Translations under genes and position numbers: made by a program | Shown: one piece after another, positions 5,737-48,686 of the stretch | Numbering within the stretch: the first letter of the stretch is position 1 | How the letters are laid out: every line of letters starts with the position of its first letter | The notes under the pieces: model-generated | What the model was told of the DNA's origin: nothing | The model's database searches: none | Seen by the model: only the letters and a program-made list of their open reading frames with translations | Source: an uncultured Bacilli bacterium | GTDB taxonomy: Bacteria > Bacillota_I > Bacilli_A > RF39 > UBA660 | DNA: 64,000 nucleotides | Direction: 5' to 3' | NCBI GenBank assembly: GCA_934096015.1 | Contig: CAKOLD010000002.1 | Location: forward strand, 393-64,392

Positions 5737-5753
5737 GGAGAGGGATAATAATT

Positions 5754-6383: not shown

Positions 6384-6448
6384 CACTTATAAGTAAATAT
6401 TTATTGATATTTGCTTTTTTTTTTTATATAATGAATTTATAGAATAAT

Positions 6449-7078: not shown

Positions 7079-7083
7079 AGAAG

Positions 7084-27783: not shown

Positions 27784-30591
27784 ATGAGAAATAGATTCAA
27801 AAAGAAACTGATGTTTGTTTTTGTATTGGTTGCTATAATTGGTAGTAGTTTTTTGTATTTAAATAATAATCAATTTAAAAATAAAAATAATTTAGTTGCT
27901 ATTGATTATAGTGAGGATGCTAATTATAAGGTTATATTTGATGCTAGTAGTGGATCATTATCTGGTTTTAATACTTATGGGTATACTAAATTAAGAGATG
28001 GAGTATATGGAGTTAATGATGTAAATAGTCAACCTGAATCAGTAACTTTTTCTGAAAGAAATGGTCACAACATAATGTATTGGAGTTTAGATGCTGCTTG
28101 TTCATCAAAAGATTTACAAGTGGGAGAGAATTTTGATTTATCTACTCATAAAGTCTATTATGCATGTTATGAAGAGGATGGTTTTGACAATGACGGTATA
28201 AGATACCCACAAGAAAATAGTTATGTTTCTGGAGCTATTGTTGAGTGTGGAGATCAAATTCATGTTACTTCTTGTTATGTAAAATTTGGAGGATCAGCTC
28301 GTGATTTAGGCTTTAAAGAATATTGTGATTTTGACAAAATAAAGAGAACTGATAGTGATTCTTTTGTAGAAGGATATGGAACAGTTTATAGAAATAGATT
28401 AAATAAAGCTCCTGTTCAAAATTGTAAGCAAAAATATACTGCATACTTTCATGAACATAGTTTTCAAAATGGAGAAGAAATTTTTGGTGATCAGTTAGAA
28501 TGTGGTTCTACAGAGTATGTAGAAAATGGTGTTTGTAAGTCTGTTGGTAATGCAGGTGATAAAGTAAAAACTCCAAATTCTTCTAATTTAAATTTTTATG
28601 GTAGAAAATTTATAGGATGGGCAGCAGATGATGATGGTGTAGATGTTAACTGTTCTGGCAGTTTAGTTACAGATTATGATGTAGTTATTAATAGTGACGT
28701 TCATTATTATGCTTGTTTTGAAAATAAACAAGAATCTTGTACTAGTTCTTCAAAAATTACTGATGCAGTTGGAACTAATGATGTTAAGGTTTGTTATAAT
28801 TCTGTAAAAAATAGTAGTGGTAATTATGTTTTAAATGCTATTAGTGGTGATTATGGAGAATTAATTTCTTGTAGAAGTGGATATGTATTAGATAATATCT
28901 CTTCGACTAATGTTACTGTTGATACATGTAATAAAGAAGGTATTTGTTATAAAAATTATAGACTTACTTGTAAAAGTCAAGAAAGACCTAAAATTACTTC
29001 AATTACTAATGGTACAGTTAGAAGCGATGGTTATGGTTTAATAGAATTTAGTGCTTATAGTGATGTTGGAATTAAAGGATATTATGCTAGTAGTTTTTAT
29101 GAACAACCAACAGTGAATAGTGGTTGGATATTTGATCCTAGAGGAAGTTATTCAATTAATAGTACTCCTGGTTTAGTATTTTTATGGGTTATTGATAATA
29201 ATAATTCTATTAGTTATTCAGCTATGGGATCAGTATTAGATACGGTAAATAGCGATACTACTTTAAGTTCTTTAGAAATTAAAACTTCTAATGGAGATAC
29301 TTTAAATCCAGAGTTAATTAGTGATGCTTTTGTAAGCAATGCTATAAATTCTAGTAATTATGTAAGATTATCTAATTCATTAGTTAAGGATAGTAAGATT
29401 TTAGCATCTGGTTTTAATCCTTTTGAAACGGGATATAAAATTACTACAAATTCTTCATCAATAACTGTTTATGCAACTTTAACAAGTAATGATTCTCATT
29501 ATGTAAGTGGTTTTGAACCTAGAACAGTGGATCTTGATTATGGTATTAATACTATTTTAATAAAGATACAAGATAAGAATGGTAAAGTAAGAACTTATAC
29601 TATTTTAGTAACTAGAAATGATGATAGAGATTCTACTAATACATTAAAAAGTATTACATTAAGTTCTGGAAAGATTAAGTTTGATCCTTATAAAACAGAA
29701 TATATTGTAAATGTTGGAAAAAATAAAAAGAGTGTTAGTGTAGATGGGGTTTTAAGTAGTAAGAGTTCTCAATTTGTAGATGGATTTGGTCCACGTAAAA
29801 TTGAACTTAAAAATGAACGCACAGAGGTATTATTAAAAGTACAAAGTCAAACTGGAACTATTAGAGCATATTCAATAATATTTGTAAAAACTGATAAAAA
29901 TGAAGAAGAAGGTGGAGAAGCTTTATTGTCTTCATTGAGTTTATCTAAAGCATATATTGCGTTTAATTCAGAAGTTTTTGAATATAATACTACTGTTGAA
30001 TATGAAGTTGATAGTTTGGATATATATGCTTTAGCACTTAATGGTGGAGATGCAGTAACAATTTATAAAAATAATCAAGGTGTAGAAGAAATTGTTAATC
30101 CATCTAATGTTGAACTTTCTCCTGGTTATAATAATTTTATAATTAAAGTTAGCAGTAAATCAGGAAAAGTAAATAAGTATTATTTGAATATTTTGAGAAA
30201 TGAAACTGGTTTAGATGTTTCTAGTGAAACGAAGTTAAGTATGCTTAGTATAGATGGATATGATATAAATTTTAATTCTGATAAATTGAATTATGAAGTT
30301 AAAATTAAATCGGAGAAGACTTTAGTTATAGCTGCAACACCTCAGAGTAATCGTTCAGAAATATTTATTAAAGGGAATGATAATTTAACAGCATTTAGTA
30401 CAGTTAGATTAAAAGTAGTTGCTGAAGATGGTCAATCTAGAGAATATATTATTGATATTCAAAAAGATAAATTTAATAAAAAAATAGAAACTATTGGTTT
30501 AATCAGTGGTGTTGGTATAATTTTATGTGGTATACTATTTATTGGTATAAAGAAAAGAAGAAAATCTATTAATGATTATTATGCAGAGTAG
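27784..30591 (+). CDS. large surface protein: Cys-rich N-region, >=4 cadherin-like beta-sandwich repeats, C-terminal TM anchor
   Basis: signal/TM at N-terminus; repeats 'LSSLxxxxGxLxFxxxxxxYxxxV' x4; 'IGLISGVGIILCGILFIGIKKRRK' C-terminal anchor. Confidence 0.6.
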   Translation: MRNRFKKKLMFVFVLVAIIGSSFLYLNNNQFKNKNNLVAIDYSEDANYKVIFDASSGSLSGFNTYGYTKLRDGVYGVNDVNSQPESVTFSERNGHNIMYWSLDAACSSKDLQVGENFDLSTHKVYYACYEEDGFDNDGIRYPQENSYVSGAIVECGDQIHVTSCYVKFGGSARDLGFKEYCDFDKIKRTDSDSFVEGYGTVYRNRLNKAPVQNCKQKYTAYFHEHSFQNGEEIFGDQLECGSTEYVENGVCKSVGNAGDKVKTPNSSNLNFYGRKFIGWAADDDGVDVNCSGSLVTDYDVVINSDVHYYACFENKQESCTSSSKITDAVGTNDVKVCYNSVKNSSGNYVLNAISGDYGELISCRSGYVLDNISSTNVTVDTCNKEGICYKNYRLTCKSQERPKITSITNGTVRSDGYGLIEFSAYSDVGIKGYYASSFYEQPTVNSGWIFDPRGSYSINSTPGLVFLWVIDNNNSISYSAMGSVLDTVNSDTTLSSLEIKTSNGDTLNPELISDAFVSNAINSSNYVRLSNSLVKDSKILASGFNPFETGYKITTNSSSITVYATLTSNDSHYVSGFEPRTVDLDYGINTILIKIQDKNGKVRTYTILVTRNDDRDSTNTLKSITLSSGKIKFDPYKTEYIVNVGKNKKSVSVDGVLSSKSSQFVDGFGPRKIELKNERTEVLLKVQSQTGTIRAYSIIFVKTDKNEEEGGEALLSSLSLSKAYIAFNSEVFEYNTTVEYEVDSLDIYALALNGGDAVTIYKNNQGVEEIVNPSNVELSPGYNNFIIKVSSKSGKVNKYYLNILRNETGLDVSSETKLSMLSIDGYDINFNSDKLNYEVKIKSEKTLVIAATPQSNRSEIFIKGNDNLTAFSTVRLKVVAEDGQSREYIIDIQKDKFNKKIETIGLISGVGIILCGILFIGIKKRRKSINDYYAE

Positions 30592-30599
30592 GTGTTATA

Positions 30600-31277
30600 T
30601 TGAAAAAGTATTTTGTTAGTTTAATAATTTTATTAATTTTTCCACTAATAGTTAAAGCTGAGAGTTGTAGTGGAATAAGTGAGACTTATTGTGAAAAAAG
30701 TAACTCATCATGTTTATCTGGATTACAAAACAATGGGTATAATAAATGGAGTACTTCAGGTAATACTGGAGAGACTTGTATTAAAGTAATTGCTGAAAGA
30801 AATGGGACAACAACTACATATTTGAGTGGAATGAATCCTAAAAGCAATTACAAGTGTAGTGATGGAAGTGTAGCAACTGCAACTAGAATTGCTTCGGCTC
30901 TTCCTAGCGAAGAGACTTCTGCTACAGGAAATTATTATGTTCCAGAACTATGGAAAGTAGTTTGTCCTACAAGTTCTTCTGGAAATAATTCTGGTAGTAA
31001 TACTGGTAATAATGGTAGTAATTCAGGAAATACGAATAATTCAGGGACAACAACTACACCGACTACAACAAGAAGTTCTTCTAGTGGATCAAGTAATAAT
31101 GGAACAACAAATAATGGAAATGGAACGTCAACTAATTCAAATGGTCAAATAACTGGTACAACTGAAAGTAAAGATACTGGTGTGAAGACTTATTTTATAG
31201 TTTTGTTTTTAATGGCTGGGGTAGCTTATTTGGTTTTAGTCGTTTCTAAAAAGAAAAATTTATTTAAAAATATTTGA
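30600..31277 (+). CDS. secreted Cys-rich protein with Ser/Thr/Asn/Gly-rich linker and C-terminal TM anchor
   Basis: TTG start with RBS; signal peptide; 'SGNNSGSNTGNNGSN...TTTTPTTT' linker; 'YFIVLFLMAGVAYLVLVVSKKK'. Confidence 0.45.
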   Translation: MKKYFVSLIILLIFPLIVKAESCSGISETYCEKSNSSCLSGLQNNGYNKWSTSGNTGETCIKVIAERNGTTTTYLSGMNPKSNYKCSDGSVATATRIASALPSEETSATGNYYVPELWKVVCPTSSSGNNSGSNTGNNGSNSGNTNNSGTTTTPTTTRSSSSGSSNNGTTNNGNGTSTNSNGQITGTTESKDTGVKTYFIVLFLMAGVAYLVLVVSKKKNLFKNI

Positions 31278-31323
31278 TTTATGAACCGTTTTGTAATATG
31301 ATAAATATATACAATATGGTAGT

Positions 31324-31351
31324 GGAGTCATATTGAATGACTCCTTTTTTT
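31324..31351 (+). terminator. rho-independent terminator
   Basis: stem ggagtca/tgactcc, T7. Confidence 0.75.
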
Positions 31352-31366
31352 GAAAGAGGTTAAGCT

Positions 31367-32467
31367 ATGAAAAAAATTAATTTTTTAGTGCTAGTTTTAT
31401 TTTGTTGCATGTTTTGTGTTTCAGTTAATGCTGCAAATTCTGGAGATTCAGTAGGCAGTAATTTAACTGAATATAGTTGTTCTAAGTTTCAAGATTCTAA
31501 TATGCTTATTGATAATGATACTTATTTTGGAAGATGTATGAAAGCTACTTGTAGTGGTAATAGATGGAAATTTAGTTATTATTCAACTGAATCAGTTTCT
31601 TGTTCAAATGGTAATTTAAATCCATATATTACTGTTTCTAAATCTGGATGTGATGATTATCAGAATAGTAGTTGTACAGGTACTGTAGTAAAATATTGTA
31701 CTACTTTAAATTATTTTGATTGTAATAGAACAGCTAATGGATCTAAATATGTAAAACCTACTAAAAAGGTAACAAAAACTACTACAGTTGCACCAACAAC
31801 AGAAGCTCCAACTACAGCTGCACCTTTAGATAATAATACTTACTTAAGTAGTTTAAAGGTATCTAGTGGATCAATTAATTTTAATAAAGATGTTAAAGAA
31901 TATAGCATTGAAGTTGAATCTACTATTTCTAGTATTAATGTTGAAGCAACTGCTGAATCTGGAACTTCAACTGTTAGTGGAACAGGGGCAGTAAGTTTGA
32001 GTGATGGAGTAAACACTGTAACTATTACGGTTACTGCCCAAGATGGAAGTACAGATAATTATGTAATTAATATTAACAGAAAAGAAGTATTATCTAAAAA
32101 TGCTAAATTAGCTTCTTTAACTGTTGATGGATATGATATAAATTTTGATCCTGATACTTATAATTATTCTTTAAAAATAAAAAAAGAAAGTACTTTGTCA
32201 ATAGAAGCAACTACAGAGGATAGTAGTGCAATTTATATGGTTCAAGGCAACGAAAATTTAAAAAATAATAGTATGATTAAAGTTGTTGTTACCGCTCCTG
32301 ATGGTGCAACTACTCAAGAATATACAATTACTGTACGTAAGTCTGGTAATGGAGCTGTTGTTATAGTAATTTTGGTTTTGATTTTAGCAATAGGTGGAGG
32401 AGTAGCTGGTTTCTATTTCTACACTAGAAAGAAAAATGCAGGGGATAAAGAGTATGAGTACGAATAA
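31367..32467 (+). CDS. surface protein: Cys-rich N-domain, Thr/Ala/Pro linker, two cadherin-like repeats, C-terminal TM anchor
   Basis: signal peptide; 'TYLSSLKVSSGSINF', 'AKLASLTVDGYDINF' repeats; C-terminal TM. Confidence 0.55.
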   Translation: MKKINFLVLVLFCCMFCVSVNAANSGDSVGSNLTEYSCSKFQDSNMLIDNDTYFGRCMKATCSGNRWKFSYYSTESVSCSNGNLNPYITVSKSGCDDYQNSSCTGTVVKYCTTLNYFDCNRTANGSKYVKPTKKVTKTTTVAPTTEAPTTAAPLDNNTYLSSLKVSSGSINFNKDVKEYSIEVESTISSINVEATAESGTSTVSGTGAVSLSDGVNTVTITVTAQDGSTDNYVININRKEVLSKNAKLASLTVDGYDINFDPDTYNYSLKIKKESTLSIEATTEDSSAIYMVQGNENLKNNSMIKVVVTAPDGATTQEYTITVRKSGNGAVVIVILVLILAIGGGVAGFYFYTRKKNAGDKEYEYE

Positions 32468-32861
32468 AAAGAAAATATTACTAGTAATTTCTATAATATT
32501 TATTGGTTTGCTTGCTTTTAAAGTTTATGCTGATCCAGCTCAAGAAGTTGGTTATGTTGGAGAAAACTTTTGTAGCGAAGATAGTGTAAAAAGATTATTA
32601 GTTATTGCTGGATATATCTTAATATTTGCCAAAATTTTAATTCCATTAATTATTATAATTAAGGGGAGTTTAGATGTTTTTCAAGCAGTTATTGCTAAAG
32701 ATAATAAAATTGTTGCCAGTGTAAAAACTTTAGCATTTAGGATTTTTTTAGGAATATTTATATTTTTTATTCCTAGTTTAGTAAAATGGACAGTTGGGTT
32801 ATTTCCGAATGATAATAATCAATGTTTTGATTGTGTTTTATCTCCAACTGAATGTAGATAA
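32454..32861 (+). CDS. VirB2/TrbC-like pilin-like small membrane protein (paralog 1 of 3), CxxC-containing tail
   Basis: signal segment, two hydrophobic helices around loop 'GSLDVFQAVIAKDNKIVASVK', tail 'CFDCVLSPTECR'; ORF 32436 trimmed to MSTNKKK. Confidence 0.45.
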   Translation: MSTNKKKILLVISIIFIGLLAFKVYADPAQEVGYVGENFCSEDSVKRLLVIAGYILIFAKILIPLIIIIKGSLDVFQAVIAKDNKIVASVKTLAFRIFLGIFIFFIPSLVKWTVGLFPNDNNQCFDCVLSPTECR

Positions 32862-32887: not shown

Positions 32888-32909
32888 AATATAAATAGAG
32901 GTGAGTAAA

Positions 32910-35423
32910 ATGAAAAAATTTTTACATTATTTTTTAGCATTTTTAATTCCTATATTAATTTTTTGTTTAGCAATGTATTTTATGAATTTGTATCCTTTTG
33001 GAGATCAATCCTTTAGAATAAAAGATGCTTTTAGTCAATATCCTGCTTTTTTTGAAGGTTTAAGACAAGGAAATTTCTTTACTTTTAAAATAGGTTTAGG
33101 CACTAATTTTTATCCAATATTTACAACCTATTTAGCTAATCCTCTTAATTTAGTGTATTTTTTATTTAAAAATTATCAATTTGAAATATTTTTCTTTCTT
33201 TTAATAATTTTTAAAATTGGATTAATAGGACTTAGTATGAATATATTATTGAATTATAAAAATGGATATAATAAATGGTCACTATTATTTTCTACAATAT
33301 ATTCTTTATGTGGATTTGTTTCACTTTATTATTTTAATTATCAATTTTTAGATGCATTATATATGTTACCATTAATTATGATAGGAATAGATAAAATAGT
33401 AAGTAATGATAAAAATTTAATGTATTTTATTACTCTTACTTTAATGATAATATTTCATTATTATACAGCTTATATGATATGTGTTTTTTTGGTAATTTAT
33501 TTTTTCTTTTTATTATATAATAAGGATTTTAATAAAAAGACTAAATTAAAAAAGATAAAAAAATTTTTTATTACAAGTTTATTTTGTGGTTTATGTTCTT
33601 CTTTTATAACTATTCCTACTTTTTACAGTTTATTGCAGGGAAGAACTTCATATTACGAAGGCTTAAAATATTTTGCTATTAATAAAAATGGAGGATCTTT
33701 CTTTTATAATTTAACTTCTTCTAGTACTTTTGTTACAGATTTAATAGGTACATGTGCACCAGTTTTTATTACTTTACTTGTTATAGTTTTAATTATTTTT
33801 ACTTTCTTTAGAAAAGATATCAATAAAAAATATAAGGCTTCTTTATTGATAATAATTTTATTATATTTTCTTTCTTTAAGTTTTAATTTATTTTATGATG
33901 CTTGGCATGTATTTCAGGAGCCAGTAGGATTACCTGGAAGGTTTGTTTTTACTTTTAATGCTTTTTTAGTTTTAATTTCTTATAATACTTTTTTAAATAT
34001 TCCTAAAATTAAAATTAAAAATAAAATTATTATTTATATAGTTACAATTGTTACAATATTATTATCATTTTTATATAAATTATATTTAATTAATTTTAAA
34101 GAATTAGATAATATTTATTATTATATGATAATATTCAATTTATTATCTTTATTTTGCTATATATTTTTTATGGATAAGAAAAAAGGCAAATATTTAATTA
34201 TATTTTTAGTATTATGTGAATTATTATGTAATCAAATATTTTCTTTTAATGTTTCATTTGCTTATGCTAAATATGATGATCGTACAGTTAATTTAAAAAA
34301 GGAAAAAGATATTGCTGAATTTTATGATAATTTAAAAAATAATAACTATCTAAGAATGGAAACGTATGATAGTTATAACAGTGGTATGTTTTATAATTAT
34401 AATTCTGTTAGTTATTACGTTTCAATTTATAATAATAATTTAAGTTTATTTGTAAATAAAAGTAATAAAAATAGTGAAAATAGTGAAAATTATATGCACA
34501 TAATTTCCTACAAATCCAATTTTTTATTTGATTCGTTTTTTGGCATTGGAAATACTGTTTATTTTAAATCAGATGATATGTGTTATGAAAAACATAATGG
34601 TGTAGTTATTAAAAGCTTAGGATTTTTAGTGAATAGTGATGATCTATATAATGATTTAAATAATTCTATTGATGATATTGTAAAATTGTATAATGATTTT
34701 ACAAAAAATAAGTATAATTTAAAATTGAAGGAATTAACACCAAGTATAGTATATGATAATGTTAAATTAAATGATGGTATTTTTTCTTTAATTAACGATA
34801 ATTACGATGGGAAAGTAAGGTTTAAATATATATTTGATGAAGATATGTATATTAATCTTGATTTATTAGAAGGACAGTATTTTACTTATTTGAAATCTGG
34901 AGTTGAATATGATACCGAAGATACCATCAATGTAATTTATAATAATAAAAAGGTTAATAGTGTGAATAAGGTAAGAAAAGGAGATAAGTTAGAAATCATT
35001 TTAACTATTCCAAGAGATTTAAAATCAGTTCTAAATAATTTTAAAAATATTACTGGTGTAAATAAACAAGTTTTTACTAATGTAATTAATGATTTAAATG
35101 AGAATGTTATTGAAGATATTACATTTAATTCTTTTGGGTTTACGGGGGATTTACAATCAACTTCTGATAAAAATTATGCAGTATTAACAATTCCTTATGA
35201 TGAAAATATTTTAATAAAAGTGGATGGAGAAAAAGTTAATTATAATAAAATATTAGGTGGGATAATAGGTTTTAAAATACCTGAGGGCCGCCATAAAATA
35301 GATTTTGAATATCACATAAAAGGCTTAAAAATGGGAATAATAATATCAAGTATTAGTTTAGTAGTGTTTTTGTTTACAAAAATTCTTGAAAAAAAAAATA
35401 ATACTAGGTATAATAATAGGTGA
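32910..35423 (+). CDS. YfhO-family GT-C membrane glycosyltransferase
   Basis: N-terminal 'MNLYPFGDQSFRIKDAFSQYPAFF' YfhO hallmark, ~13 TM in first 450 aa, large extracytoplasmic C-domain, final TM. Confidence 0.7.
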   Translation: MKKFLHYFLAFLIPILIFCLAMYFMNLYPFGDQSFRIKDAFSQYPAFFEGLRQGNFFTFKIGLGTNFYPIFTTYLANPLNLVYFLFKNYQFEIFFFLLIIFKIGLIGLSMNILLNYKNGYNKWSLLFSTIYSLCGFVSLYYFNYQFLDALYMLPLIMIGIDKIVSNDKNLMYFITLTLMIIFHYYTAYMICVFLVIYFFFLLYNKDFNKKTKLKKIKKFFITSLFCGLCSSFITIPTFYSLLQGRTSYYEGLKYFAINKNGGSFFYNLTSSSTFVTDLIGTCAPVFITLLVIVLIIFTFFRKDINKKYKASLLIIILLYFLSLSFNLFYDAWHVFQEPVGLPGRFVFTFNAFLVLISYNTFLNIPKIKIKNKIIIYIVTIVTILLSFLYKLYLINFKELDNIYYYMIIFNLLSLFCYIFFMDKKKGKYLIIFLVLCELLCNQIFSFNVSFAYAKYDDRTVNLKKEKDIAEFYDNLKNNNYLRMETYDSYNSGMFYNYNSVSYYVSIYNNNLSLFVNKSNKNSENSENYMHIISYKSNFLFDSFFGIGNTVYFKSDDMCYEKHNGVVIKSLGFLVNSDDLYNDLNNSIDDIVKLYNDFTKNKYNLKLKELTPSIVYDNVKLNDGIFSLINDNYDGKVRFKYIFDEDMYINLDLLEGQYFTYLKSGVEYDTEDTINVIYNNKKVNSVNKVRKGDKLEIILTIPRDLKSVLNNFKNITGVNKQVFTNVINDLNENVIEDITFNSFGFTGDLQSTSDKNYAVLTIPYDENILIKVDGEKVNYNKILGGIIGFKIPEGRHKIDFEYHIKGLKMGIIISSISLVVFLFTKILEKKNNTRYNNR

Positions 35424-35443
35424 AAATAAGGAGGAATGTTTAA

Positions 35444-35680
35444 ATGAAAGAAGCAAGTGGAGAATTAAGTATGACTGCTGTTGCAATTGTTGCAATTGCT
35501 GCATTAAGTGTTTTGTTCTTAACTGTTATATTTCCAAATATAAAACGTAGTTTAGAACATAATCAATTATGTTCTGCAGCATATGGGTGTACTAATTGTA
35601 CAGGTGGAGTATGTACTTGTACAGCGGTAAATAGCTCTGGTGCAACTACTACTGTAACTTGTGATGACCCAAATAAATAG
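35444..35680 (+). CDS. 78-aa membrane-anchored Cys/Thr/Gly-rich peptide (minor pilin-like?)
   Basis: strong RBS AAGGAGGA; 'MKEASGELSMTAVAIVAIAALSVLFLTVIF' then 'CSAAYGCTNCTGGVCTCTAVNSSGATTTVTC'. Confidence 0.4.
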   Translation: MKEASGELSMTAVAIVAIAALSVLFLTVIFPNIKRSLEHNQLCSAAYGCTNCTGGVCTCTAVNSSGATTTVTCDDPNK

Positions 35681-35704
35681 TCTTTATAGAAAGCTTGTTA
35701 TAAA

Positions 35705-36163
35705 GTGAGAGAGTCTATTGGTGGTGCATGGCTTTTAGGAATTGTTATGACTTTCATTGTTTTATTTGCTAGTTTTTTGGCAGTTTCAATTAATTATTCT
35801 AAAGCTTTTAAAGTTAAAAATAATGTTGTTGATTTAATAGAAAAAAATGAAGGTGTTAATAGTTCAACTGTTGCAGATATATATAATTATTTGCAGAGTG
35901 AAGGATATATTCTTAAGGGGCCATGTAGAAATGGTGGAAAAGGTTTTGACAAGGATGGCGTAGCAACTAATCAATCAAAGTCTTTGTATTGTGTTAAAGA
36001 AAATAAAATACAGGATACTGATACAGGACTTGAAAAATCTTATTATAGTGTAGAAGTGTTTTTTAGATTGGATTTGCCTATTTTTGGAGATGTTTTTACA
36101 TTCCATGTTAATGGAGAAACTATGAGTATATATTTTCCTAAAAATGGGTGGACATTAAGTTAG
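35705..36163 (+). CDS. small N-terminally anchored protein (pseudopilin/TadE-like topology?)
   Basis: N-terminal hydrophobic helix 'AWLLGIVMTFIVLFASFLAV'; start uncertain (GTG). Confidence 0.3.
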   Translation: MRESIGGAWLLGIVMTFIVLFASFLAVSINYSKAFKVKNNVVDLIEKNEGVNSSTVADIYNYLQSEGYILKGPCRNGGKGFDKDGVATNQSKSLYCVKENKIQDTDTGLEKSYYSVEVFFRLDLPIFGDVFTFHVNGETMSIYFPKNGWTLS

Positions 36164-36172
36164 TGAGGATTT

Positions 36173-37189
36173 ATGAACGTAATTATTGCAAATAAGCGAA
36201 AAGATTTGCTAGATAAACTTGATATTGATATTATTAAATCCGTTGATGGAGAATATTCTGTTGATGAATTAATTAGTATGTTTACTAATTTTTTCTTTAA
36301 TAAAATGATAGTGGATATTACTGCAATTAAGGATTTTAATAATATTAATAATATTAAAAAGTTTACTGAAGCAGTTGATGTTAATAAAGTAATTTTATTA
36401 CTTGGAGATTCTTCTTTAGAAAGTAGTAAAGAATTTATAAGCGATTTAATAAGTATGGGAATTTATAATTTTACTCAAACTCTTCAAGGGGTTATGGATT
36501 TATATAATAAACCTAATACTTATGATGATGTTAAAATGTATCATTCAGATACTAGTTTTAGTACTTTAAAGACTGAAAAAAAAGATATTGCTTTATATGA
36601 TGAGGCTTTGGAATTTAATGAAGATTTAAGAATTATAGGTGTTCAAGATTTAACTGATGGAGCTGGAGCTACTACGTTGGTTGTACAAATGGTTAAACAA
36701 CTTAATATAAATTATCCAACTATTGGGATTGAACTTAATAAACAAGATTTTATATTTTTTACTTCACCTTTTTTATATTCTTGTACTTCTAAAGCAGATG
36801 CTATTAAGAAGATTAATGAACATAAAGAGTGCAAAGTTGTAATTGTTGATTTAAATAAATTTGATGATACTAGCTTTTGTAATGATGTTATTTATCTTGT
36901 TGAACCTTCAACTATTAAATTAACAAAATTAATGAAACGTAATAGAGTTGTCTTTGATAATTTAAGGGGAAAGAAAATTATATTAAATAAAACTGCTCTT
37001 AAAGAGAAAGATGTATCTGAATTTGAAACTGAAATAGGTACTAGAGTATTTGCTTGTGTAAATAACTTTAATGATAGATCTGAAAGAGTGTTAACTGTTG
37101 ATTCTTTACTTGTTAAGTTAGGATTTACTAAACAGTATGTGGGTGATGGAAAAGCTCCTAAAAAAAGAGGACTTTTTAGTAGACATTAA
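36173..37189 (+). CDS. degenerate ParA/MinD-fold protein with N-terminal receiver-like domain (TadZ/CpaE-like architecture)
   Basis: 'GVQDLTDGAGATTLVVQMV' = deviant Walker A with Lys->Ala; 'CKVVIVDLN' Walker-B-like; N-terminal ~120 aa flavodoxin/receiver-like. Confidence 0.4.
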   Translation: MNVIIANKRKDLLDKLDIDIIKSVDGEYSVDELISMFTNFFFNKMIVDITAIKDFNNINNIKKFTEAVDVNKVILLLGDSSLESSKEFISDLISMGIYNFTQTLQGVMDLYNKPNTYDDVKMYHSDTSFSTLKTEKKDIALYDEALEFNEDLRIIGVQDLTDGAGATTLVVQMVKQLNINYPTIGIELNKQDFIFFTSPFLYSCTSKADAIKKINEHKECKVVIVDLNKFDDTSFCNDVIYLVEPSTIKLTKLMKRNRVVFDNLRGKKIILNKTALKEKDVSEFETEIGTRVFACVNNFNDRSERVLTVDSLLVKLGFTKQYVGDGKAPKKRGLFSRH

Positions 37190-37257: not shown

Positions 37258-37623
37258 ATGAATTTAGTAATGTTAGGGGCATTTAATGATTTTTGTTCAG
37301 AAATGTCTGGGATGTTAAAAATTGTTGGTTATGTTGTAACAATTTTTAAAGTAGCTATACCTTTAATAATCGTTATTTATGGAATGATTGATTTAGGTAA
37401 AGCAGTAGTTGCTAGTAAAGATGATGAAATTAAAAAGGCTGCTAAACAAGTTGGTGTTAGATTAGCTGCAGGTATTTTAATTTATTTCATACCATCATTA
37501 GTAATGTTAGTATTTGGATGGATAAGTGACTATAATAATTTAATGACTGAATCTGAATTCCAAGTTTGTTCAAATTGTATTTTGAAACCTGGGGATTGTG
37601 AAGGAAAAGGTTTAGATGGATAA
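37258..37623 (+). CDS. VirB2/TrbC-like pilin-like small membrane protein (paralog 2), CxxC tail
   Basis: 'IPLIIVIYGMIDLGKAVVASKDDEIKKAAKQVGVRLAAGILIYFIPSLV' helix-loop-helix; 'CSNCILKPGDCEG'. Confidence 0.45.
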   Translation: MNLVMLGAFNDFCSEMSGMLKIVGYVVTIFKVAIPLIIVIYGMIDLGKAVVASKDDEIKKAAKQVGVRLAAGILIYFIPSLVMLVFGWISDYNNLMTESEFQVCSNCILKPGDCEGKGLDG

Positions 37624-37650
37624 AACAACTTTACAGTTGTTTTTTTGTTT
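37623..37650 (+). terminator. rho-independent terminator after pilin-like gene
   Basis: stem aaacaact/agttgttt, T-run. Confidence 0.75.
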
Positions 37651-37682
37651 GTTATAATATTTAGTGTATTATACTAAATAGA

Positions 37683-38294
37683 TTGAGTTGGTGGCATGTG
37701 GATAAAAAAGTAGTTGTTGTATTAATAATTATATATTGTGCTTTATGTTGTATTAAAGTTAATGCCGATGTTAGAGTTAATGTTGGGGAAACCAAAAGTG
37801 TTTTTAGAAATAGTGCTTGTACAATAACTAATTGTACAACACTTGATAGTAATGTTGAAGTTTCGTTTAATAATGATGTTTGTAAAGCAAAGGCCTTAAC
37901 TGTAGGTGAAGCTAATGTTAAAATAACTTGTGAACAAGGTGAAGAAAAGATTATTAAAGTTAATGTCGTAGATGGTAATTCTAATAATACAACGGTTCCT
38001 AATACTAGTGCTAGTGTTGCCGAAGCTAATTGTTCATCTTTGGCGTTGCTTGTAAAGGATTTACAAGGTGTTTTTAAAATAATTAAATTTGTTGTTCCAA
38101 TATTGATTGTTGTAATGAGTACTTATGATTTTATTAAAGCTATTGCTGGCAAGGTTGAAGGAGAAATGAAAAAGGCTTTTCAAAAACTTTTAAAAAGATT
38201 GTTATTTGCAATTATATTGTTTTTCTTGCCTAATATATTAGATTTCTTTTTGGGCTTAATTGACCCTAGTTATACAACTTGTATAAATAGTTAG
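37683..38294 (+). CDS. pilin-like paralog 3 with N-terminal Cys-containing beta-rich extracellular domain
   Basis: C-terminal 90 aa 'FVVPILIVVMSTYDFIKAIAGKVEGEMKKAFQKLLKRLLFAIILFFLPNIL' aligns with paralogs 1 and 2; start uncertain (TTG/GTG). Confidence 0.4.
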   Translation: MSWWHVDKKVVVVLIIIYCALCCIKVNADVRVNVGETKSVFRNSACTITNCTTLDSNVEVSFNNDVCKAKALTVGEANVKITCEQGEEKIIKVNVVDGNSNNTTVPNTSASVAEANCSSLALLVKDLQGVFKIIKFVVPILIVVMSTYDFIKAIAGKVEGEMKKAFQKLLKRLLFAIILFFLPNILDFFLGLIDPSYTTCINS

Positions 38295-38310: not shown

Positions 38311-40401
38311 ATGAGCAATCTGGTTTTAAATGCATCTTTGATAGGAGATTGGTTTTATGGTATTTGGATTAATCTTTGGCTTTTAATAGATAACGTTGTT
38401 TATTTGTTTATAAATTGGATGTATCGTATATTTATTTTAGTTGCTAAAGTAGATATTTTCGGTGGTGGAGAACAAATTGAAGCTATTACTAGAAGAATAT
38501 ATATTATTGTTGGTATTGCCATGTTGTTTATATTTGCTTATAACTTAATATTGTTAATTGTTAATCCAGATGGAAAACAGTTAGGTAATATGTCACAAGT
38601 TATAAAAAATGCTATTATTTCTATTGCTCTTGTAACACTTTTACCTTTAATTTTTAGTTATATGACTACTGTTCAAAATCATATTATAGATGGTGATGTT
38701 ATCGGTAATTTGATTTTTGGAACAGCAAATAACAAAAATTCTTCAAACGAGAAAGCAGGTATTAATGTTGCTTTGAGTATTTTTTCGGCTTTTTATCATC
38801 CTGATGGACAATCATATAATTCTTGTAAAGCTGATCCTTCTGCACATTCTTTATGTGCAACTTACGTCCAAGCTTATGATGATGCTTTAGCAAACGAAAA
38901 TATGACTTTGTTTATTTGGAATGAGGATTTGAAAGATGGTGCTAAAGATAACGACATGGAGTATAACTGGATAATTTCTACTGGTGCAGGTATTTTTGCT
39001 TTGTGGATGTTTGTTTCTTTTGCACTAGATATTGGAGTACGTGTTGGGAAGATGGCTTTTTATGAGCTTGTTTCACCCATTCCCGTGATGTTGCGTATAA
39101 TGCCTAATGATAAGAAATTTAATGCATGGTTTAATGGAATCAAGAGTACTTATATTTCTCTTTTTGTTAGATTAGCGATCATATATTTTTCTATGTATGC
39201 AATTACTTTAGTTCCTGATGTACTTAGTAATATGTGGGCAGATATGTCGCAAGATAATGTAGTTTTAGCGATGCTTGCAAATGTTGTTATTATTTTGGGT
39301 ATTCTTAAATTTGCTCAAGAGGCACCTAAATTATTTAAAGATGTCCTTGGTGGCAGTGGTGATATTAGTCTTGGTATTGCTAGCAAAATTAAAGATAATA
39401 AAGCTCTTGCAACTGGTACAAGTTTTGTACGTGGTGGAGTTTATGGTGCTACTACTGGCGAAGGATTTGGTGGAAGAGTATCAGGATTCTTTGGTGGAGC
39501 TACTAGGGGAGCAAGATATGGATATCAAGATGGTGTTAATAGATTAGAAGAATCTAGAGAAGCTAAAGAAAATGGTTCAACATTTAGAGGAAGAATGGCT
39601 GATAGGGCACGTTATGGATTAGGAATGCAAACTCGTGCTGATGCTGCTGATAGAAATTTAGAAAGACAATATGCTGCAGAAGTTGAACAAAATGAGAAAG
39701 ATCTTATTCAAATTCAAAAAGATAGAGATAGAGAGAATATCGCAACAAGACAAGCTTACAATAAAGAGGTTATGGGATATCGTTCAGATATAAAGAAAAT
39801 TGCTGATAGTTGGGCTGAAAGAACTAACTCACAATTTACATATGATGCTGGCGATAGCTATATTGACCATAATGGAAATAATGTTGATATTAAGGGAAAT
39901 TTAAGTCAATTAAATCAAATGTATGAATCTGCAAAAGCAAATGGTGCTGATGCCCAAACTCTTAGCAAATTGCAAGGTGCAATTTCTAAGGCTAAAGGTA
40001 ATATTAGAAATCAAATTGTTGATTCTGTAATGAATGGAACAGCAGAAAGCCGCGGAATTGGTTCTAATGATGTTGCTAAGATTAATGGTGATATTGAGTC
40101 TATAAATACAATGATTAGGGATAATCAAGTTGGTTTAAAAGCAGATGGTACTGCAACATTAACTACTGAAGTGACGGATGCTAAGGGTGTATTTAGTGGT
40201 GTTGAAAATGCAGTTTTAGAACAAGAAAGAGATATAGAAAGTGTTAATAGAAACTTGGATAGAAAACAACAAGAGATCGAAAGACGTCAAAAAGAAATTG
40301 AAAATCGTAAAAAAGAAGCTAAGGCTAGTGATCGATACAAGAGTGTTAGAGCGGATGCAGATGCAATAAATCATAAAAAAGGTGGCGGAAATGCTAAATG
40401 A
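38311..40401 (+). CDS. VirB6/TrbL-like polytopic T4SS channel protein with long charged/coiled-coil C-terminal domain
   Basis: >=6 TM helices in first 330 aa, Gly-rich segment, coiled-coil tail; upstream of VirB3/VirB4 as in PrgH-PrgI-PrgJ and Tn916 orf15. Confidence 0.5.
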   Translation: MSNLVLNASLIGDWFYGIWINLWLLIDNVVYLFINWMYRIFILVAKVDIFGGGEQIEAITRRIYIIVGIAMLFIFAYNLILLIVNPDGKQLGNMSQVIKNAIISIALVTLLPLIFSYMTTVQNHIIDGDVIGNLIFGTANNKNSSNEKAGINVALSIFSAFYHPDGQSYNSCKADPSAHSLCATYVQAYDDALANENMTLFIWNEDLKDGAKDNDMEYNWIISTGAGIFALWMFVSFALDIGVRVGKMAFYELVSPIPVMLRIMPNDKKFNAWFNGIKSTYISLFVRLAIIYFSMYAITLVPDVLSNMWADMSQDNVVLAMLANVVIILGILKFAQEAPKLFKDVLGGSGDISLGIASKIKDNKALATGTSFVRGGVYGATTGEGFGGRVSGFFGGATRGARYGYQDGVNRLEESREAKENGSTFRGRMADRARYGLGMQTRADAADRNLERQYAAEVEQNEKDLIQIQKDRDRENIATRQAYNKEVMGYRSDIKKIADSWAERTNSQFTYDAGDSYIDHNGNNVDIKGNLSQLNQMYESAKANGADAQTLSKLQGAISKAKGNIRNQIVDSVMNGTAESRGIGSNDVAKINGDIESINTMIRDNQVGLKADGTATLTTEVTDAKGVFSGVENAVLEQERDIESVNRNLDRKQQEIERRQKEIENRKKEAKASDRYKSVRADADAINHKKGGGNAK

Positions 40402-40426
40402 TAATGAATAAAGAGTGGGTGAAAGT

Positions 40427-40735
40427 ATGAATGATCAATTTTTAATACCAGCAAATTCTAAAAAATCTATGTTAATATTAAGTTTCTTTAATGTAACTGA
40501 TTTAATAATATTTGGTAGTGGATGTTTGTTAACTTTTATTTTGTTAATGACAATTAATCAAAATACAATTGAATCAGCTGCAATAATTTTGGCACCGGTG
40601 CTTGTAACAGGTATTTTAGTATTACCTGTTCCTAATCACCATAATGTTAGAACTTTTATAAAAAACGTTTATCAATATTTTGCTAATAGAAGAACTTATT
40701 TTTGGAGAGGTTGGTGTATAAGACATGGCAAGTAA
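40427..40735 (+). CDS. VirB3-like small two-TM protein
   Basis: ~100 aa, two TM helices, directly precedes VirB4 (PrgI / ConD position). Confidence 0.4.
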   Translation: MNDQFLIPANSKKSMLILSFFNVTDLIIFGSGCLLTFILLMTINQNTIESAAIILAPVLVTGILVLPVPNHHNVRTFIKNVYQYFANRRTYFWRGWCIRHGK

Positions 40736-41276
40736 TTCTAAATTTACAGAAGATTGGTTACCAATTAGAAATATAAAGAATGGTTTTATTGAACTTGAAG
40801 GTAAATATTATGTGACTGGTGTAAAAATAGAACCTAAAAATATATTTATTTTAGATTATACTGAACAACAAGCAATTATATTTAATTTTAGAAATGTTTA
40901 TAATTCAATTGATTATGAATTTTGGTTAATGGTTGCTGATAGACCTGTTGATATTAATATGTATTTAGCACAATTACAACTTTTATATAATCAAGCTCCA
41001 AATCAACAAATAAGAAAATTAATTGCTCAAGATATTAATAAAGGAGAAAGATTTAGAAGTACTGAAATCAATGCTGTTGATACAGAGTACTTTATTATAT
41101 TTAGAGATAAAAAAATTGAAACTCTTCAAAAAAGAGTACATCAGTTAATATCAAGTCTTGCTTCATGTGGACTTAATTCCAAACAAGTTAGCGATGAGGA
41201 TTTAAGAGTATTATTGGATAGTTTTCTAAATGGAAATAGAAAAACGGAATTTGGGACGGTGATTGCTAGTGAATAA
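40725..41276 (+). CDS. VirB4-family ATPase, N-terminal fragment (split gene)
   Basis: 'DWLPIRNIKNGFIELEGKYYVTGVKIEPKNIF' typical Gram-positive VirB4 N-terminus; ends TAA at 41274 while the ATPase domain continues in the +1 frame. Confidence 0.55.
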   Translation: MASNSKFTEDWLPIRNIKNGFIELEGKYYVTGVKIEPKNIFILDYTEQQAIIFNFRNVYNSIDYEFWLMVADRPVDINMYLAQLQLLYNQAPNQQIRKLIAQDINKGERFRSTEINAVDTEYFIIFRDKKIETLQKRVHQLISSLASCGLNSKQVSDEDLRVLLDSFLNGNRKTEFGTVIASE

Positions 41277-43071
41277 TAAATTAAAAAGTGAGTTGGCTCC
41301 TAAAGGTTTAGATTTTAATATAAATGATTTTGTTATTAGCGATATGTATTGTACTATTTTAACTATTGTTAATTTTCCAAAGATGATTGGCCCAGGATTT
41401 CTTGCTAATGTAACTAGTATCCCTGGTGTTAAATTAGTTATTAAACATATTCCTATAGAATTTTCAACTATGTCAAAAATGATTAATAAAGAGATAGCTG
41501 ATTTAAAGCAAAGATATCAAAGTGAAAATGATAGAACTATGCAAGAAAGTATTAGACAAGATTATGAGTCTTTAGAGTCATTTGTATCTATGCTTGCTTC
41601 TACTCAATCTAGAATATTTGATTTTCAAATGCATGTTATGTTATCTGCTGAAACTAAAGATCAGTTGGAAATGAAAAAAATTCAAGTAAGAAATTATTTG
41701 GATGCTTTGGGTATGAGAGGAATACCAATGATGTTTGAACAAGAGAAAGTTCTAAAATCTATAATTCCAATTTTTCCTAAACAAGATATTGAAGCTAGAG
41801 TAGGAACGCCGATACCTAGTCCTACTATTGCAGCAATGTATCCTTTTGTATTTGATAGTATAAAAGATCCTGGAAATAATAATTCAGCTCCAACTTTGCT
41901 TGGTGTAGATTTTTCAGGAGGAGTTGTATTATTTAACCAATTTTTATACCAAATTAGAAAAGAGTTTAATAGAAATAATGCTAATATGATTATATTAGGT
42001 ACGAGTGGTAGTGGTAAATCTACTGCTGCAAAATTAATGCTTAGAACTCATATAAGAAATGGTTGTCAAATTATTTGTATAGATCCTGAAGGTGAACTTG
42101 AGGAAATGACAAAAACTTATGGTGGTGATTTTATTTCTCTAGGAAAAGGTGGAGAATTTGGTTTAATTAATCCATTAGAAGTTGTTGCAGATGTTGATGA
42201 GGATGAATTAAAACAAGGTTTAGGTTATACAGTTTTAACTAGAACTTTGCAATCTTTAAAAGCATTTTTAAAGTATTATAGTCCATCTATTGAAGAAGAT
42301 GTACTTGCAATGTTTAGTGAAGTATTACAAGATACTTATAAACGTTTTAATATTGATTTTAATACTGATTTTAGTAATTTTAAACCTGAAGATTTTCCGA
42401 CTTTTGATGATGTCTATTCAACTATTAAGGGGAGATTATTATCTATTCCAGAAATGACAAAAGAAAAAGATGTTTTGGAAAGATTAGAATTAAAGATAAG
42501 ACCTTTTGTTAAAGAATTACGTTATTATTTTACTGGCCATACTACTATTGAGCGAGATAGTGACTTTATGGTATTTAATATAAAAGAAGTTATGAATAGT
42601 GATGAAAATATTCGAAATGCATTATTCTTTAATATCTTAAAGTTTGCTTGGGGATTATGTTTAGATAAATCTGTAAATACAGTTATGCTTGTAGATGAAG
42701 CTCACGTTCTTTTAGGAAGTAGAAATGAATTGGGTGCAGAATTCTTAGCACAAATTCAAAGACGTAGTAGAAAATACAATACAGGTACAATAATAATTAC
42801 TCAACAACCAACTGACTTTGCTGCTGATAAAATAATAGTTCACGGTAAAGCAATATTTGATAATGCTTCTTATTATTTAGTTATGGGACTTAAAAAACAA
42901 GCAGTAGAGGATTTAGCAAAATTAATTGATTTGAATGATAATGAAAAAGAGAGTATTAAAACGTATTCTCAAGGTGAGGCTTTGTTTGTTTGTGGTAATA
43001 GAAGAATGAGAATAAATGTGGTTGTTACTCAAGAAGAATTAGATTCCTTTGGGTCAGGCGGAGGATTATAG
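41263..43071 (+). CDS. VirB4/TraE-family ATPase, C-terminal part (Walker A and B)
   Basis: 'IILGTSGSGKST' Walker A, 'VMLVDEAHVLL' Walker B; TTG start immediately after in-frame TGA. Confidence 0.8.
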   Translation: MLVNNKLKSELAPKGLDFNINDFVISDMYCTILTIVNFPKMIGPGFLANVTSIPGVKLVIKHIPIEFSTMSKMINKEIADLKQRYQSENDRTMQESIRQDYESLESFVSMLASTQSRIFDFQMHVMLSAETKDQLEMKKIQVRNYLDALGMRGIPMMFEQEKVLKSIIPIFPKQDIEARVGTPIPSPTIAAMYPFVFDSIKDPGNNNSAPTLLGVDFSGGVVLFNQFLYQIRKEFNRNNANMIILGTSGSGKSTAAKLMLRTHIRNGCQIICIDPEGELEEMTKTYGGDFISLGKGGEFGLINPLEVVADVDEDELKQGLGYTVLTRTLQSLKAFLKYYSPSIEEDVLAMFSEVLQDTYKRFNIDFNTDFSNFKPEDFPTFDDVYSTIKGRLLSIPEMTKEKDVLERLELKIRPFVKELRYYFTGHTTIERDSDFMVFNIKEVMNSDENIRNALFFNILKFAWGLCLDKSVNTVMLVDEAHVLLGSRNELGAEFLAQIQRRSRKYNTGTIIITQQPTDFAADKIIVHGKAIFDNASYYLVMGLKKQAVEDLAKLIDLNDNEKESIKTYSQGEALFVCGNRRMRINVVVTQEELDSFGSGGGL

Positions 43072-43083
43072 GCGGTGAAGCTA

Positions 43084-45165: not shown

Positions 45166-45174
45166 GAGATATTT

Positions 45175-45672
45175 ATGAAGAAAAATAATATAATATTAGT
45201 TATTATTTTAGTTTTACTATTTGCAGTTGCTTTAACTTTGGTATATTTAGAAAAAAGAGATGGTAAAGATGCTCTAGTAACTGAAAATAAAAAGGTTAGT
45301 GTTTTAAAAAATTATAATGAGTTTTATACAGTAAATTCTTGTGTATATCGTTATTTAACTTATGTTCAATCTCGTAATACTGATTTTTTATTAAAAGTAT
45401 TGGATGATAGTTTTGTTAAAAATAATAATATTAATTCTACTAATGTTTTAAATTTTATTAATGTTTATGAGGGAAATATTAATTTTAATTCAAGAAAGAT
45501 GTTTTATGAAAAAGTTAATAGCCATATAACAAAATATTATGTTTATGGATATGTTGAAAAAGATATTATAGATGATGATCCTTTAAGGTATGAAGCTTAT
45601 TATATAGTTAATTTAGATAGTAAGAATAAGGTTTTTTCAATTATGCCTTATAGTGGAGAGTTATTTAAATAG
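45175..45672 (+). CDS. small N-terminally anchored protein, NTF2-sized ectodomain (VirB8/PrgL-like?)
   Basis: one TM + ~130 aa; position after the hydrolase as PrgL after PrgK. Confidence 0.3.
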   Translation: MKKNNIILVIILVLLFAVALTLVYLEKRDGKDALVTENKKVSVLKNYNEFYTVNSCVYRYLTYVQSRNTDFLLKVLDDSFVKNNNINSTNVLNFINVYEGNINFNSRKMFYEKVNSHITKYYVYGYVEKDIIDDDPLRYEAYYIVNLDSKNKVFSIMPYSGELFK

Positions 45673-45680
45673 GTGAGATT

Positions 45681-46169: not shown

Positions 46170-46185
46170 AAAGGAGGAGATCCTT

Positions 46186-47943: not shown

Positions 47944-47950
47944 TGGTAAA

Positions 47951-48640: not shown

Positions 48641-48686
48641 TAGTAAAAAATAAAAAAATATTATATAATGATGAAAGGAGGCCGCT

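Follow-up and report, generated by a model that had tools for sequence, protein, structure and literature searches.

What are three consecutive genes that match no Pfam or NCBIfam family doing in the middle of a type IV secretion system (T4SS) gene cluster of an uncultured Bacilli bacterium? The genes, p78, p152 and p338, occupy positions 35444-37189 of the 64,000-nt stretch of contig CAKOLD010000002.1 analysed here (the window). A reading made from the sequence alone (the sequence-only reading) had described them as a Tad/Flp-like trio within a VirB/D4 system: a Cys-rich mini-pilin-like peptide, a small anchored protein and a TadZ-like localisation or assembly-scaffold protein. The three open reading frames (ORFs) and the strong ribosome-binding site that it listed are present:

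35430-35434, plus strand: Shine-Dalgarno sequence GGAGG, read directly from the sequence, 9 nt before the p78 ATG and 7 nt past the stop codon of an upstream YfhO gene
35444-35680, plus strand: p78, 78 amino acids (aa), ATG start
35705-36163, plus strand: p152, 152 aa, GTG start
36173-37189, plus strand: p338, 338 aa, ATG start

The intergenic gaps are 24 nt (p78-p152) and 9 nt (p152-p338). All three are real conserved genes and not chance ORFs. Because they are consistently part of a T4SS gene cluster, they are probably accessory parts of a chromosomal T4SS in uncultured low-GC gut Bacilli. The reading favoured here, to which we assign a probability of roughly 0.5, is that the trio encodes conserved accessory subunits of a chromosomal MPF_FATA-like T4SS, p338 being an adaptor and p78 and p152 bitopic subunits.

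The trio families are large. The relatives of p338 form 3,496 clusters at 90% identity, and 499 at 50% identity among 1.84 billion representatives; those of p78 form 3,789 clusters at 90% identity; 187 relatives of p152 were counted, a number limited by the word index. The few named relatives are annotated as 'hypothetical protein [Bacilli bacterium]'. None of the three families has a significant Pfam or NCBIfam match (best E-value for p338: 0.018, below the cut-off), and sequence-profile searches of the PDB with each of them returned nothing. A scan of GTDB species genomes identified 29 loci with p338, mostly in metagenome-assembled genomes of uncultured Bacilli, Tenericutes or Mollicutes; six bear Muribaculaceae titles and look like bin contamination. 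The order RF39 is suspected. In 27 of the 29 loci, tblastn recovers the same order: cadherin-like adhesins, p141, p78, p152, p338, p121 and p203. Where the locus reaches beyond p203, this is followed by genes for a VirB6-like protein, a VirB3-like protein, VirB4N, VirB4C, an M23/lysozyme hydrolase, p165, p162 and p585. Two loci (L017 and L025) have matches to the trio and p121-like matches alone, despite 10 kb of downstream flank. The T4SS neighbourhood is also found around three of four distant p338 relatives on metagenomic contigs, in full in L030 and L033 and in part on the short contig L035. The link to VirB4/VirD4 that the sequence-only reading had drawn is thus borne out by strict synteny. 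The closest GTDB species representative has a p338 of 54% identity, and metagenome proteins reach 70-99%; the lineage of the window seems to be absent from the GTDB species-representative set.

The secretion genes that surround the trio are as follows:

32436-32861, plus strand: p141, a hairpin of two transmembrane (TM) segments, VirB2-like paralogue of p121
37258-38294, plus strand: p121 (37258-37623) and p203 (37683-38294), VirB2-like hairpins directly 3' of p338
38311-43071, plus strand: VirB6-like protein (696 aa), VirB3/TcpE-like protein (106 aa), VirB4 N-domain (183 aa) and VirB4 ATPase (602 aa)
43075-50879, plus strand: M23+lysozyme hydrolase, two N-anchored 160-aa proteins, a 585-aa protein, a lipoprotein and the VirD4 coupling protein

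VirB4 has the conserved domains P-loop_TraG and AAA_10 and matches the VirB4_plasma model, built on the integrative and conjugative element (ICE) of Mycoplasma, with an E-value of 2e-100 but below its cut-off. VirD4 has the T4SS-DNA_transf domain (E-value: 5e-55) and matches the CD1115 family with 294 bits, above the NCBIfam cut-off of 250. The VirB6-like protein is most similar to the MMCAP2_0566/Mbov_0396 family, with a score below the cut-off, and the VirB3-like protein shows a weak match to TcpE. A cell-wall hydrolase with M23 and lysozyme domains is encoded in the same cluster. By this gene content, the machine is a monoderm (MPF_FATA-like) T4SS. The VirB3-like protein, VirB4N and the VirB4 ATPase (40415-43071) are encoded by three ORFs, the first two of which overlap by 11 nt (40725-40735); the VirB4N and VirB4C genes overlap by 4-14 nt in the window and in most loci and abut in a few. 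All related loci that extend this far (L001-L030 and L033) keep the three-ORF split. The VirB4 ATPase is approximately 73-87% identical across loci, compared with 30-55% for other genes of the cluster.

The trio is flanked by p141, p121 and the C-terminus of p203, which are paralogous two-TM hairpins with Cys-rich extracellular ends. A homologue of these hairpins in L033 has a faint match to PF18895 (T4SS_pilin), and a copy in L030 carries a large Cys-rich ectodomain as a fusion. Together they resemble the arrays of VirB2-like pilins described for Patescibacterial T4SSs. As the window also encodes IleRS, LexA, ScpAB, EzrA and the S10 ribosomal operon, it is chromosomal DNA; the T4SS cluster sits between these housekeeping genes, flanked by scpAB and the S10 operon. 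Pfam matched no relaxase, Rep_trans or integrase in the 24-53 kb region, though divergent relaxases could escape it. Pfam scans covered 63 of the 64 window ORFs of at least 100 aa (all except 61016-61414, in a ribosomal-protein stretch). In these scans, no significant match to T2SSE, TadB/C or peptidase A24 was found and TadA/B/C/V were absent from the window, as the sequence-only reading had said of TadA/B/C; the related loci are likewise without T2SSE, TadB/C or peptidase A24 matches.

The largest member of the trio, p338, is predicted to consist of two folded domains. Its AlphaFold2 (AF2) model, made with a 50-sequence alignment, has a mean predicted local distance difference test score (pLDDT) of 81.5 and divides as follows:

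36173-36547, plus strand: N-domain (aa 1-125), CheY/flavodoxin-like (beta/alpha)5 pseudo-receiver
36548-36622, plus strand: linker (aa 126-150), low model confidence
36623-37132, plus strand: C-domain (aa 151-320), MinD/ParA (SIMIBI) fold
37133-37189, plus strand: C-terminal tail (aa 321-338), a spacer that varies and then the basic-aromatic motif KKxGLFxK, model pLDDT <50

The order of elements in the N-domain is b1-a1-b2-a2-b3-a3-b4-a4-b5-a5. The linker is highly variable in length and composition, and through it some members reach 523 aa. When the model was compared with the PDB using Foldseek, SIMIBI NTPases ranked highest, so that the best structural match is not an unrelated fold: MinD (4v02; E-value: 7e-5), BcsQ (6yay), FlhG (4rz2), ParF (4dzz; TM-target 0.61), HypB, ParA and MeaB were all found with a probability of 1.00. 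IcmF, in which a B12 domain is joined to a MeaB domain, aligns with both p338 domains (E-value: 2.5e-8), and CheB (6ymz) matches the N-domain (probability 0.97, E-value about 1e-4). The receiver-like and MinD/ParA-like halves recognized in the sequence-only reading are therefore upheld by the predicted structure. At the level of sequence, p338 has no significant match in Pfam, NCBIfam or a PDB profile search, and the separated domains have none even at E<=5.

The nucleotide pocket of the C-domain was read in 60 diverse and 50 close members (110 sequences). The P-loop of p338 is LTDGAGATTL, as the sequence-only reading had quoted it, and the family consensus is N-[VLI]-T-x-x-A-G-[AST]-T-[ST]. 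Both Walker A lysine positions are free of K/R in 110/110 sequences: among the 60 diverse members, position 166 (canonical Lys) is occupied by A, S or T without exception (60/60), and position 161 (signature Lys) is T in 58/60. The loss of the lysine is therefore confirmed, but the earlier verdict 'likely non-catalytic' has to be qualified. At its other positions the pocket is fixed or almost fixed, with G165 (59/60), T167 (T/S in 60/60), the switch-I-like E187 (60/60), D226 of the Walker B sequence 'VDLN' (60/60) and N228 (59/60); the sequence 'YLxEPS' is also conserved in this domain. Such conservation argues for a ligand site that is maintained, not decayed or dead. Residues such as these would not survive random decay; the site is probably still used, but not for canonical catalysis.

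In the N-domain, D48, at the phospho-acceptor position at the end of beta3, is conserved in 60/60 members, N7 (59/60) replaces the acidic pair after b1, and the b5 Lys is missing, b5 ending in Y-N-F; these receiver positions were assigned from the AF2 model, not by structural superposition. The sequence 'G[IL]YNF[TS]' stands where receivers have 'GAxDYLxKP'. As the b3 Asp is the sole survivor of the phospho-acceptor set, this domain is a pseudo-receiver. At the other end of the protein, the tail KKxGLFxK found in this clade (with variants such as GLFGLFRR and GIFDIFKG elsewhere) resembles the membrane-targeting sequence KKGFLKRLFGG of E. coli MinD and may, by this likeness, bind the membrane. 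Hydrophobic-moment scoring of the tail did not discriminate, the motif being too short.

The architecture of p338 resembles that of TadZ/CpaE, but membership in that family is unproven. An atypical receiver-like N-domain precedes a MinD/ParA-fold domain in both, both are encoded beside small proteins with a hydrophobic N-terminus, and both are without the canonical P-loop lysine: the Walker A-like consensus of TadZ is K/RGGxGxS/T (bioRxiv 10.64898/2026.07.08.737194). CpaE is also the best profile match of p338, but a weak one. In hhalign, without secondary-structure scoring, a profile of 60 p338 sequences aligned with nine CpaE sequences over 284 colinear columns spanning both domains (24-338 against 46-409), with a score of 25.8, P=0.02 and an HH probability of 2.3%; 19 column-shuffled controls scored <=17.7. 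Alignments of p338 with single CpaE and MinD sequences were not significant (MinD P=0.31). The p338 sequence T-[ED]-[HG]-A-G-[AS]-T differs from TadZ in that it is also without the signature Lys and the GG, keeping only G-x-[ST]; p338 further differs in its invariant Asp at the phospho-acceptor position, in its MinD-like basic-aromatic tail and in its neighbours, which are VirB3/4/6/D4 instead of TadA/B/C. Whether whole or split, p338 has no match to AAA_31, CbiA, BcsQ or a TadZ N-domain model even at E<=5, unlike genuine CpaE; the control protein, CpaE2 of S. meliloti pSymA, has the conserved domain AAA_31 (E-value: 1.9e-12) in addition to BcsQ, CbiA and Response_reg. TadZ itself (3FKQ) is not among the top 50 Foldseek matches. 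Of the likeness to TadZ/CpaE claimed from the sequence, the domain architecture thus stands, and assignment to the family remains putative. In the control locus (L031 19831-21591, minus strand), no stop codon separates the CpaE2 frame (AAA_31 at aa 162-325) from a TadE-like segment (TadE at aa 445-486), which is either a natural fusion or a quirk of sequence or annotation.

Other proteins of this fold show the same mixture of likeness and difference. The C-domain shares its fold with MinD, FlhG, BcsQ and ParF, together with the motif order of P-loop, switch-I acidic residue, hhhhD Walker B and 'EPS'/'PE' after beta-7, and its basic-hydrophobic C-tail resembles the membrane-targeting sequences of MinD and FlhG. 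It differs from them in having neither lysine of KGGxGK[ST], in the extra N-terminal receiver-like domain and in the absence of any match at the sequence level, and no gene for a partner of the MinE, MinC or ParB type is evident in the p338 cluster. A housekeeping MinD role was rejected on the basis of the T4SS synteny and the absence of a MinC/MinE neighbour. VirC1 of Agrobacterium is a ParA-fold ATPase with a canonical Walker A motif that serves a VirB/D4 system as a dedicated spatial adaptor, recruiting the relaxosome. Like VirC1, p338 is a ParA-fold protein tied to a VirB/D4 system; it differs in its missing Lys, its added pseudo-receiver and a host system with no relaxase match. A precedent for the co-option proposed in the sequence-only reading is TsfV of the type VII secretion system T7SSf, in which a TadZ-like atypical receiver domain has been recruited by a non-Tad Gram-positive secretion system (PMC11217815). 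The receiver-like domain of TsfV is fused to an AAA+ ATPase instead of a MinD fold, and its host machine is a T7SS, not a T4SS.

The two small proteins resemble each other at their N-termini. Residues 1-34 of p78 are near-invariant in the 120 best-scoring clusters (MK[ED]A[ST]GELSMTA[VI]AVVAIAA[IV]GV[VL]FTTLIWPxIK) and contain its one hydrophobic helix; variability is confined largely to the 45 residues at the C-terminal end, in which Cys, Thr and Asn abound. The number of Cys residues is even (4, 6 or 8) in the 120 best-scoring members. The six Cys of the p78 tail in the window were quoted correctly in the sequence-only reading, but they extend over 31 residues (C43-C73) and not 25; C43, C49, C59 and C73 are the conserved ones. 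The p152 protein starts with M-R-E-[AS]-I-G-G-x-W, is anchored by a single helix and has conserved Cys residues at C74 and C96. In its AF2 model (pLDDT 85, predicted template modelling score 0.74), an N-terminal helix of 43 residues and a second helix accompany a 4-stranded sheet. In both proteins a hydrophobic helix thus comes after an M-[KR]-[ED]-[AS]-x-G start, and in the window and 30 related loci this motif is confined to these two gene families. Identity falls from the N-terminal segment to the C-terminal part (77% to 33% in p78, 79% to 45% in p152), a gradient that resembles the pattern seen in pilins. In L017 (8568-9982), two p78-like and two p152-like genes lie in tandem, a small-subunit duplication like that of pilin gene arrays.

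No Flp, TadE or prepilin family was recognized in these proteins. No match to Flp_Fap (PF04964), TadE (PF07811) or N_methyl (PF07963) was found in 24 p78 and 47 p152 members (E<=1 or E<=10), one p78 member having a non-significant match to archaeal Pilin_N (E-value: 0.082); a control ORF on pSymA matches TadE at 5e-10. Pfam and NCBIfam searches with the trio, the isolated p338 domains and all p78 and p152 alignment members gave noise only (GRDA, ATG9, DUF7327), and levivirus coat proteins, the top structural matches of p152 with an E-value of about 0.3, were likewise taken as noise. The shared start motif ends in Gly6, at position -1 of a putative cleavage site (117/120 p78 and 120/120 p152 members; Ser in 3/120, Ala in L030), and cleavage after this residue is possible because a prepilin peptidase is implied for this genome by a ComG-type prepilin, described below. 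Position +5 is Thr in p78 and Phe/Leu in p152 instead of Glu, +1 is Glu or Gly, and no Glu-Tyr follows the Gly. The C-terminal domains of both proteins are regarded as extracellular because the Cys counts are even, the domains are rich in T/N/S/D and similar Cys-rich segments occur in clearly secreted neighbours.

The proposed model for the trio is as follows. The p338 protein would be cytoplasmic and, having no canonical ATPase cycle, would act as a scaffold or positioning adaptor in the manner of TadZ/CpaE, FlhG, BcsQ and VirC1. In this clade it may be held at the membrane by its MinD-like basic-aromatic C-tail, and it would dock on a T4SS ATPase, on p78 and p152 at their near-invariant M-[KR]-[ED]-[AS]-x-G N-termini, or on both. 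If the topology of p78 and p152 is N-in, these N-termini are the only parts able to reach p338; the contact would resemble the PilN-PilM arrangement of type IVa pili. Outside the membrane, p78 and p152 would present C-domains that are probably disulfide-bonded and, with the three VirB2-like hairpin proteins, would most likely form part of an envelope-spanning or surface structure.

Several observations weigh against this model. The fourth distant p338 member, P0181 on a 3.6-kb contig (L034), is without the usual neighbours and has no p78 or p152 upstream. The charges that flank the p78 and p152 helices disfavour an N-in/C-out orientation, with a mean K+R of approximately 1 N-terminal to the helix and 2.2-2.4 C-terminal to it. 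A Foldseek search of the PDB with the p152 model gave no match at E<=0.001 and no pilin. The C-tail of p338 is present in some distant members and absent from many, and the near-invariant pocket could mean real nucleotide binding or switching instead of pure scaffolding. Binding of p338 to any partner is itself something that we infer. The gene called downstream of P0181 contains in-frame TGA codons, which may reflect the use of genetic code 4 in this lineage or else a different context.

The pocket is also the starting point for a different account of p338, in which the protein is a working switch driven by nucleotide. With ATP, GTP or another phospho-ligand bound, it would dimerize and cycle on and off the membrane through its tail, and in a manner like that of MinD and FlhG it would so time or license the assembly of the T4SS. 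Membrane binding by MinD depends on dimerization, and the likeness of the p338 tail to the MinD membrane-targeting sequence fits such a cycle. The preservation of G165, T167, E187, D226 and N228 would be unexpected in a decayed site, K175 (48/60) and K190 (45/60, with R in a further 6) could replace the missing lysines, and the TadZ Walker A consensus is without the canonical Lys as well; TadZ was reportedly crystallized with ATP bound. We nevertheless consider an active switch improbable, since both deviant Walker A lysines are absent, no gene for a MinE- or ParB-like activator is evident in the cluster and many members are without the tail. A much poorer fit is the suggestion that p78 is the precursor of a bacteriocin or of a ribosomally synthesized and post-translationally modified peptide, in which a conserved leader would precede a core rich in Cys, Thr and Ser, and that the T4SS exports it or is accompanied by its export. 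The conserved N-terminus and variable, Cys/Thr-rich C-terminus of p78 have this general form, but the conserved part is a 23-residue hydrophobic helix instead of a soluble leader, the invariably even Cys counts fit disulfides, and p78 is locked in T4SS synteny beside p152, with which its N-terminal motif is shared. Enzymes of the lanthipeptide, sactipeptide, thiopeptide or cyclodehydratase type are absent from the window, as are peptidase-ABC exporters; its sole radical-SAM enzyme (20043-21446), 14 kb upstream, is of the MiaB/RimO type. The sequence-only reading had itself seen no modification enzymes nearby, and on these grounds the precursor was rejected as highly improbable.

A third account takes the trio to be what is left, in diverged form, of a Tad module grafted onto the T4SS. 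Here p78 would be Flp-like, p152 TadE/F-like and p338 TadZ-like; p78 and p152 would be class III substrates, cut after Gly6 by the prepilin peptidase of the genome and polymerizing into a filament or tip, and VirB4, or a ComGA-type ATPase encoded elsewhere, would replace TadA. The domain order of p338, its missing P-loop Lys (shared with the TadZ consensus; bioRxiv 10.64898/2026.07.08.737194) and its preference, albeit weak, for CpaE over MinD (P=0.02 against 0.31) are consistent with this, as are the six-residue start of p78 and p152 with Gly6 followed by approximately 23 hydrophobic residues, the pilin-like conservation gradient, the long N-helix and 4-stranded sheet of the p152 model and the tandem arrays of L017. 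A stand-alone type IV prepilin of the ComG type is encoded at 2647-3168 (MKKLKNNKKG/FTLVELL); unlike p78 and p152 it does match PF07963, as well as TIGR02532 and, weakly, ComGC/D/E. The presence of this canonical prepilin implies that a prepilin peptidase is encoded somewhere in the genome, and a Com pilus possibly lies outside the window. Against a Tad origin stand the want of any Flp_Fap, TadE or N_methyl match among the p78 and p152 members, the residues at +5 and +1, the Ser and Ala found at -1, a net charge of -1 in the N-terminal flank of p78 together with flank charges that disfavour N-in, the absence of TadA/B/C/V from the window and the failure of Foldseek to retrieve a pilin for p152. 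On balance a Tad remnant appears unlikely. The minor pilin or tip peptide postulated in the sequence-only reading is plausible: the gradient, the shared motif and the helix-and-sheet model of p152 agree with it, and the family searches, the Foldseek result and the flank charges do not. The accessory-subunit reading, in which p338 is an adaptor and p78 and p152 are bitopic subunits of the T4SS, is retained.

The remainder of the window, which is approximately 26% G+C, provides some context for the cluster:

27784-32467: cadherin-like secreted proteins that open the cluster, with signal peptides, C-terminal TM anchors, Cys-rich N-terminal regions and Thr/Pro linkers
32901-35423: YfhO-family membrane glycosyltransferase (840 aa), between p141 and p78
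53420-54364, minus strand: GT2 glycosyltransferase, 18 kb downstream of YfhO

The cadherin-like beta-sandwich proteins are likely adhesins of the T4SS. Going upstream from p78, the first cluster gene detected in most relatives is p141, with gaps of 51-1,848 nt. The intervening YfhO gene is particular to this window, L007 alone among the related loci having a short, weak YfhO match at this position. Since the Shine-Dalgarno sequence of p78 lies only 7 nt past the YfhO stop codon, p78 is probably co-transcribed with YfhO. YfhO and GT2 might form a surface glycosylation pair of the CsbB/YfhO type within the T4SS operon. At 5116-8115, two tandem proteins of 206-209 aa have N-termini ('...ATFAYFTA') like SipW-dependent TasA/camelysin signals and are followed by a protein with the signal-peptidase motif 'SPSMEP'; this looks like a TasA/SipW-type fibre locus when examined by eye, with no Pfam match at 1e-3.

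The components are best placed with kinds already described: p338 as a TadZ/MinD-like adaptor, p78 and p152 as pilin-like bitopic subunits, and the machine as a monoderm T4SS. The closest parallel for the machine as a whole is found in Patescibacteria, where a relaxase-less chromosomal monoderm T4SS with VirB2-like arrays is essential for epibiotic growth (PMC12102498; PMC12857230). Both systems comprise a MPF_FATA-type set (VirB1/3/4/6/8/D4-like) encoded on the chromosome without a relaxase, both have several sequence-divergent genes for VirB2-like hairpins, and both belong to hosts with reduced genomes. They differ in phylum, the system described here being from Bacilli, and PMC12102498, in which ParA, MinD and TadZ are not mentioned, describes no counterpart of p78, p152 or p338. 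The Mycoplasma ICE T4SS (Mbov_0396/0397, MMCAP2_0566) provides the best NCBIfam matches for the VirB6-like protein and VirB4, but all scores are below the family cut-offs, and the VirB3, VirB4N and VirB4C parts encoded here by three genes are fused there into a single protein, which the 894-aa VirB4 model spans. A literature search for RF39 and T4SS found no paper describing such a system in RF39-like Bacilli.

A bolder view would combine these parallels. A chromosomal T4SS without a relaxase match would have absorbed a degenerate Tad-type module (Flp-like, TadE-like and a TadZ-like pseudo-ATPase) and, with the VirB2-like array, would build a surface filament on a Gram-positive cell, VirB4 powering it in place of a TadA/PilB ATPase. 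Such a hybrid machine is quite a long shot; if it exists, its filament might support host-dependent (epibiotic) living of the kind seen in Patescibacteria. Whether Gram-positive T4SSs build pili and what organizes their cytoplasmic face are open questions (PMC12857230). The trio adds three abundant unannotated families tied to a Gram-positive T4SS, and the main points of interest are the lysine-less yet conserved pocket of p338 and the parallel with the Patescibacterial T4SS, here in gut Bacilli. If the trio is core to the machine, its products would be candidates for the missing scaffold and surface components, and the three genes would provide a marker set with which to find such systems in gut metagenomes.

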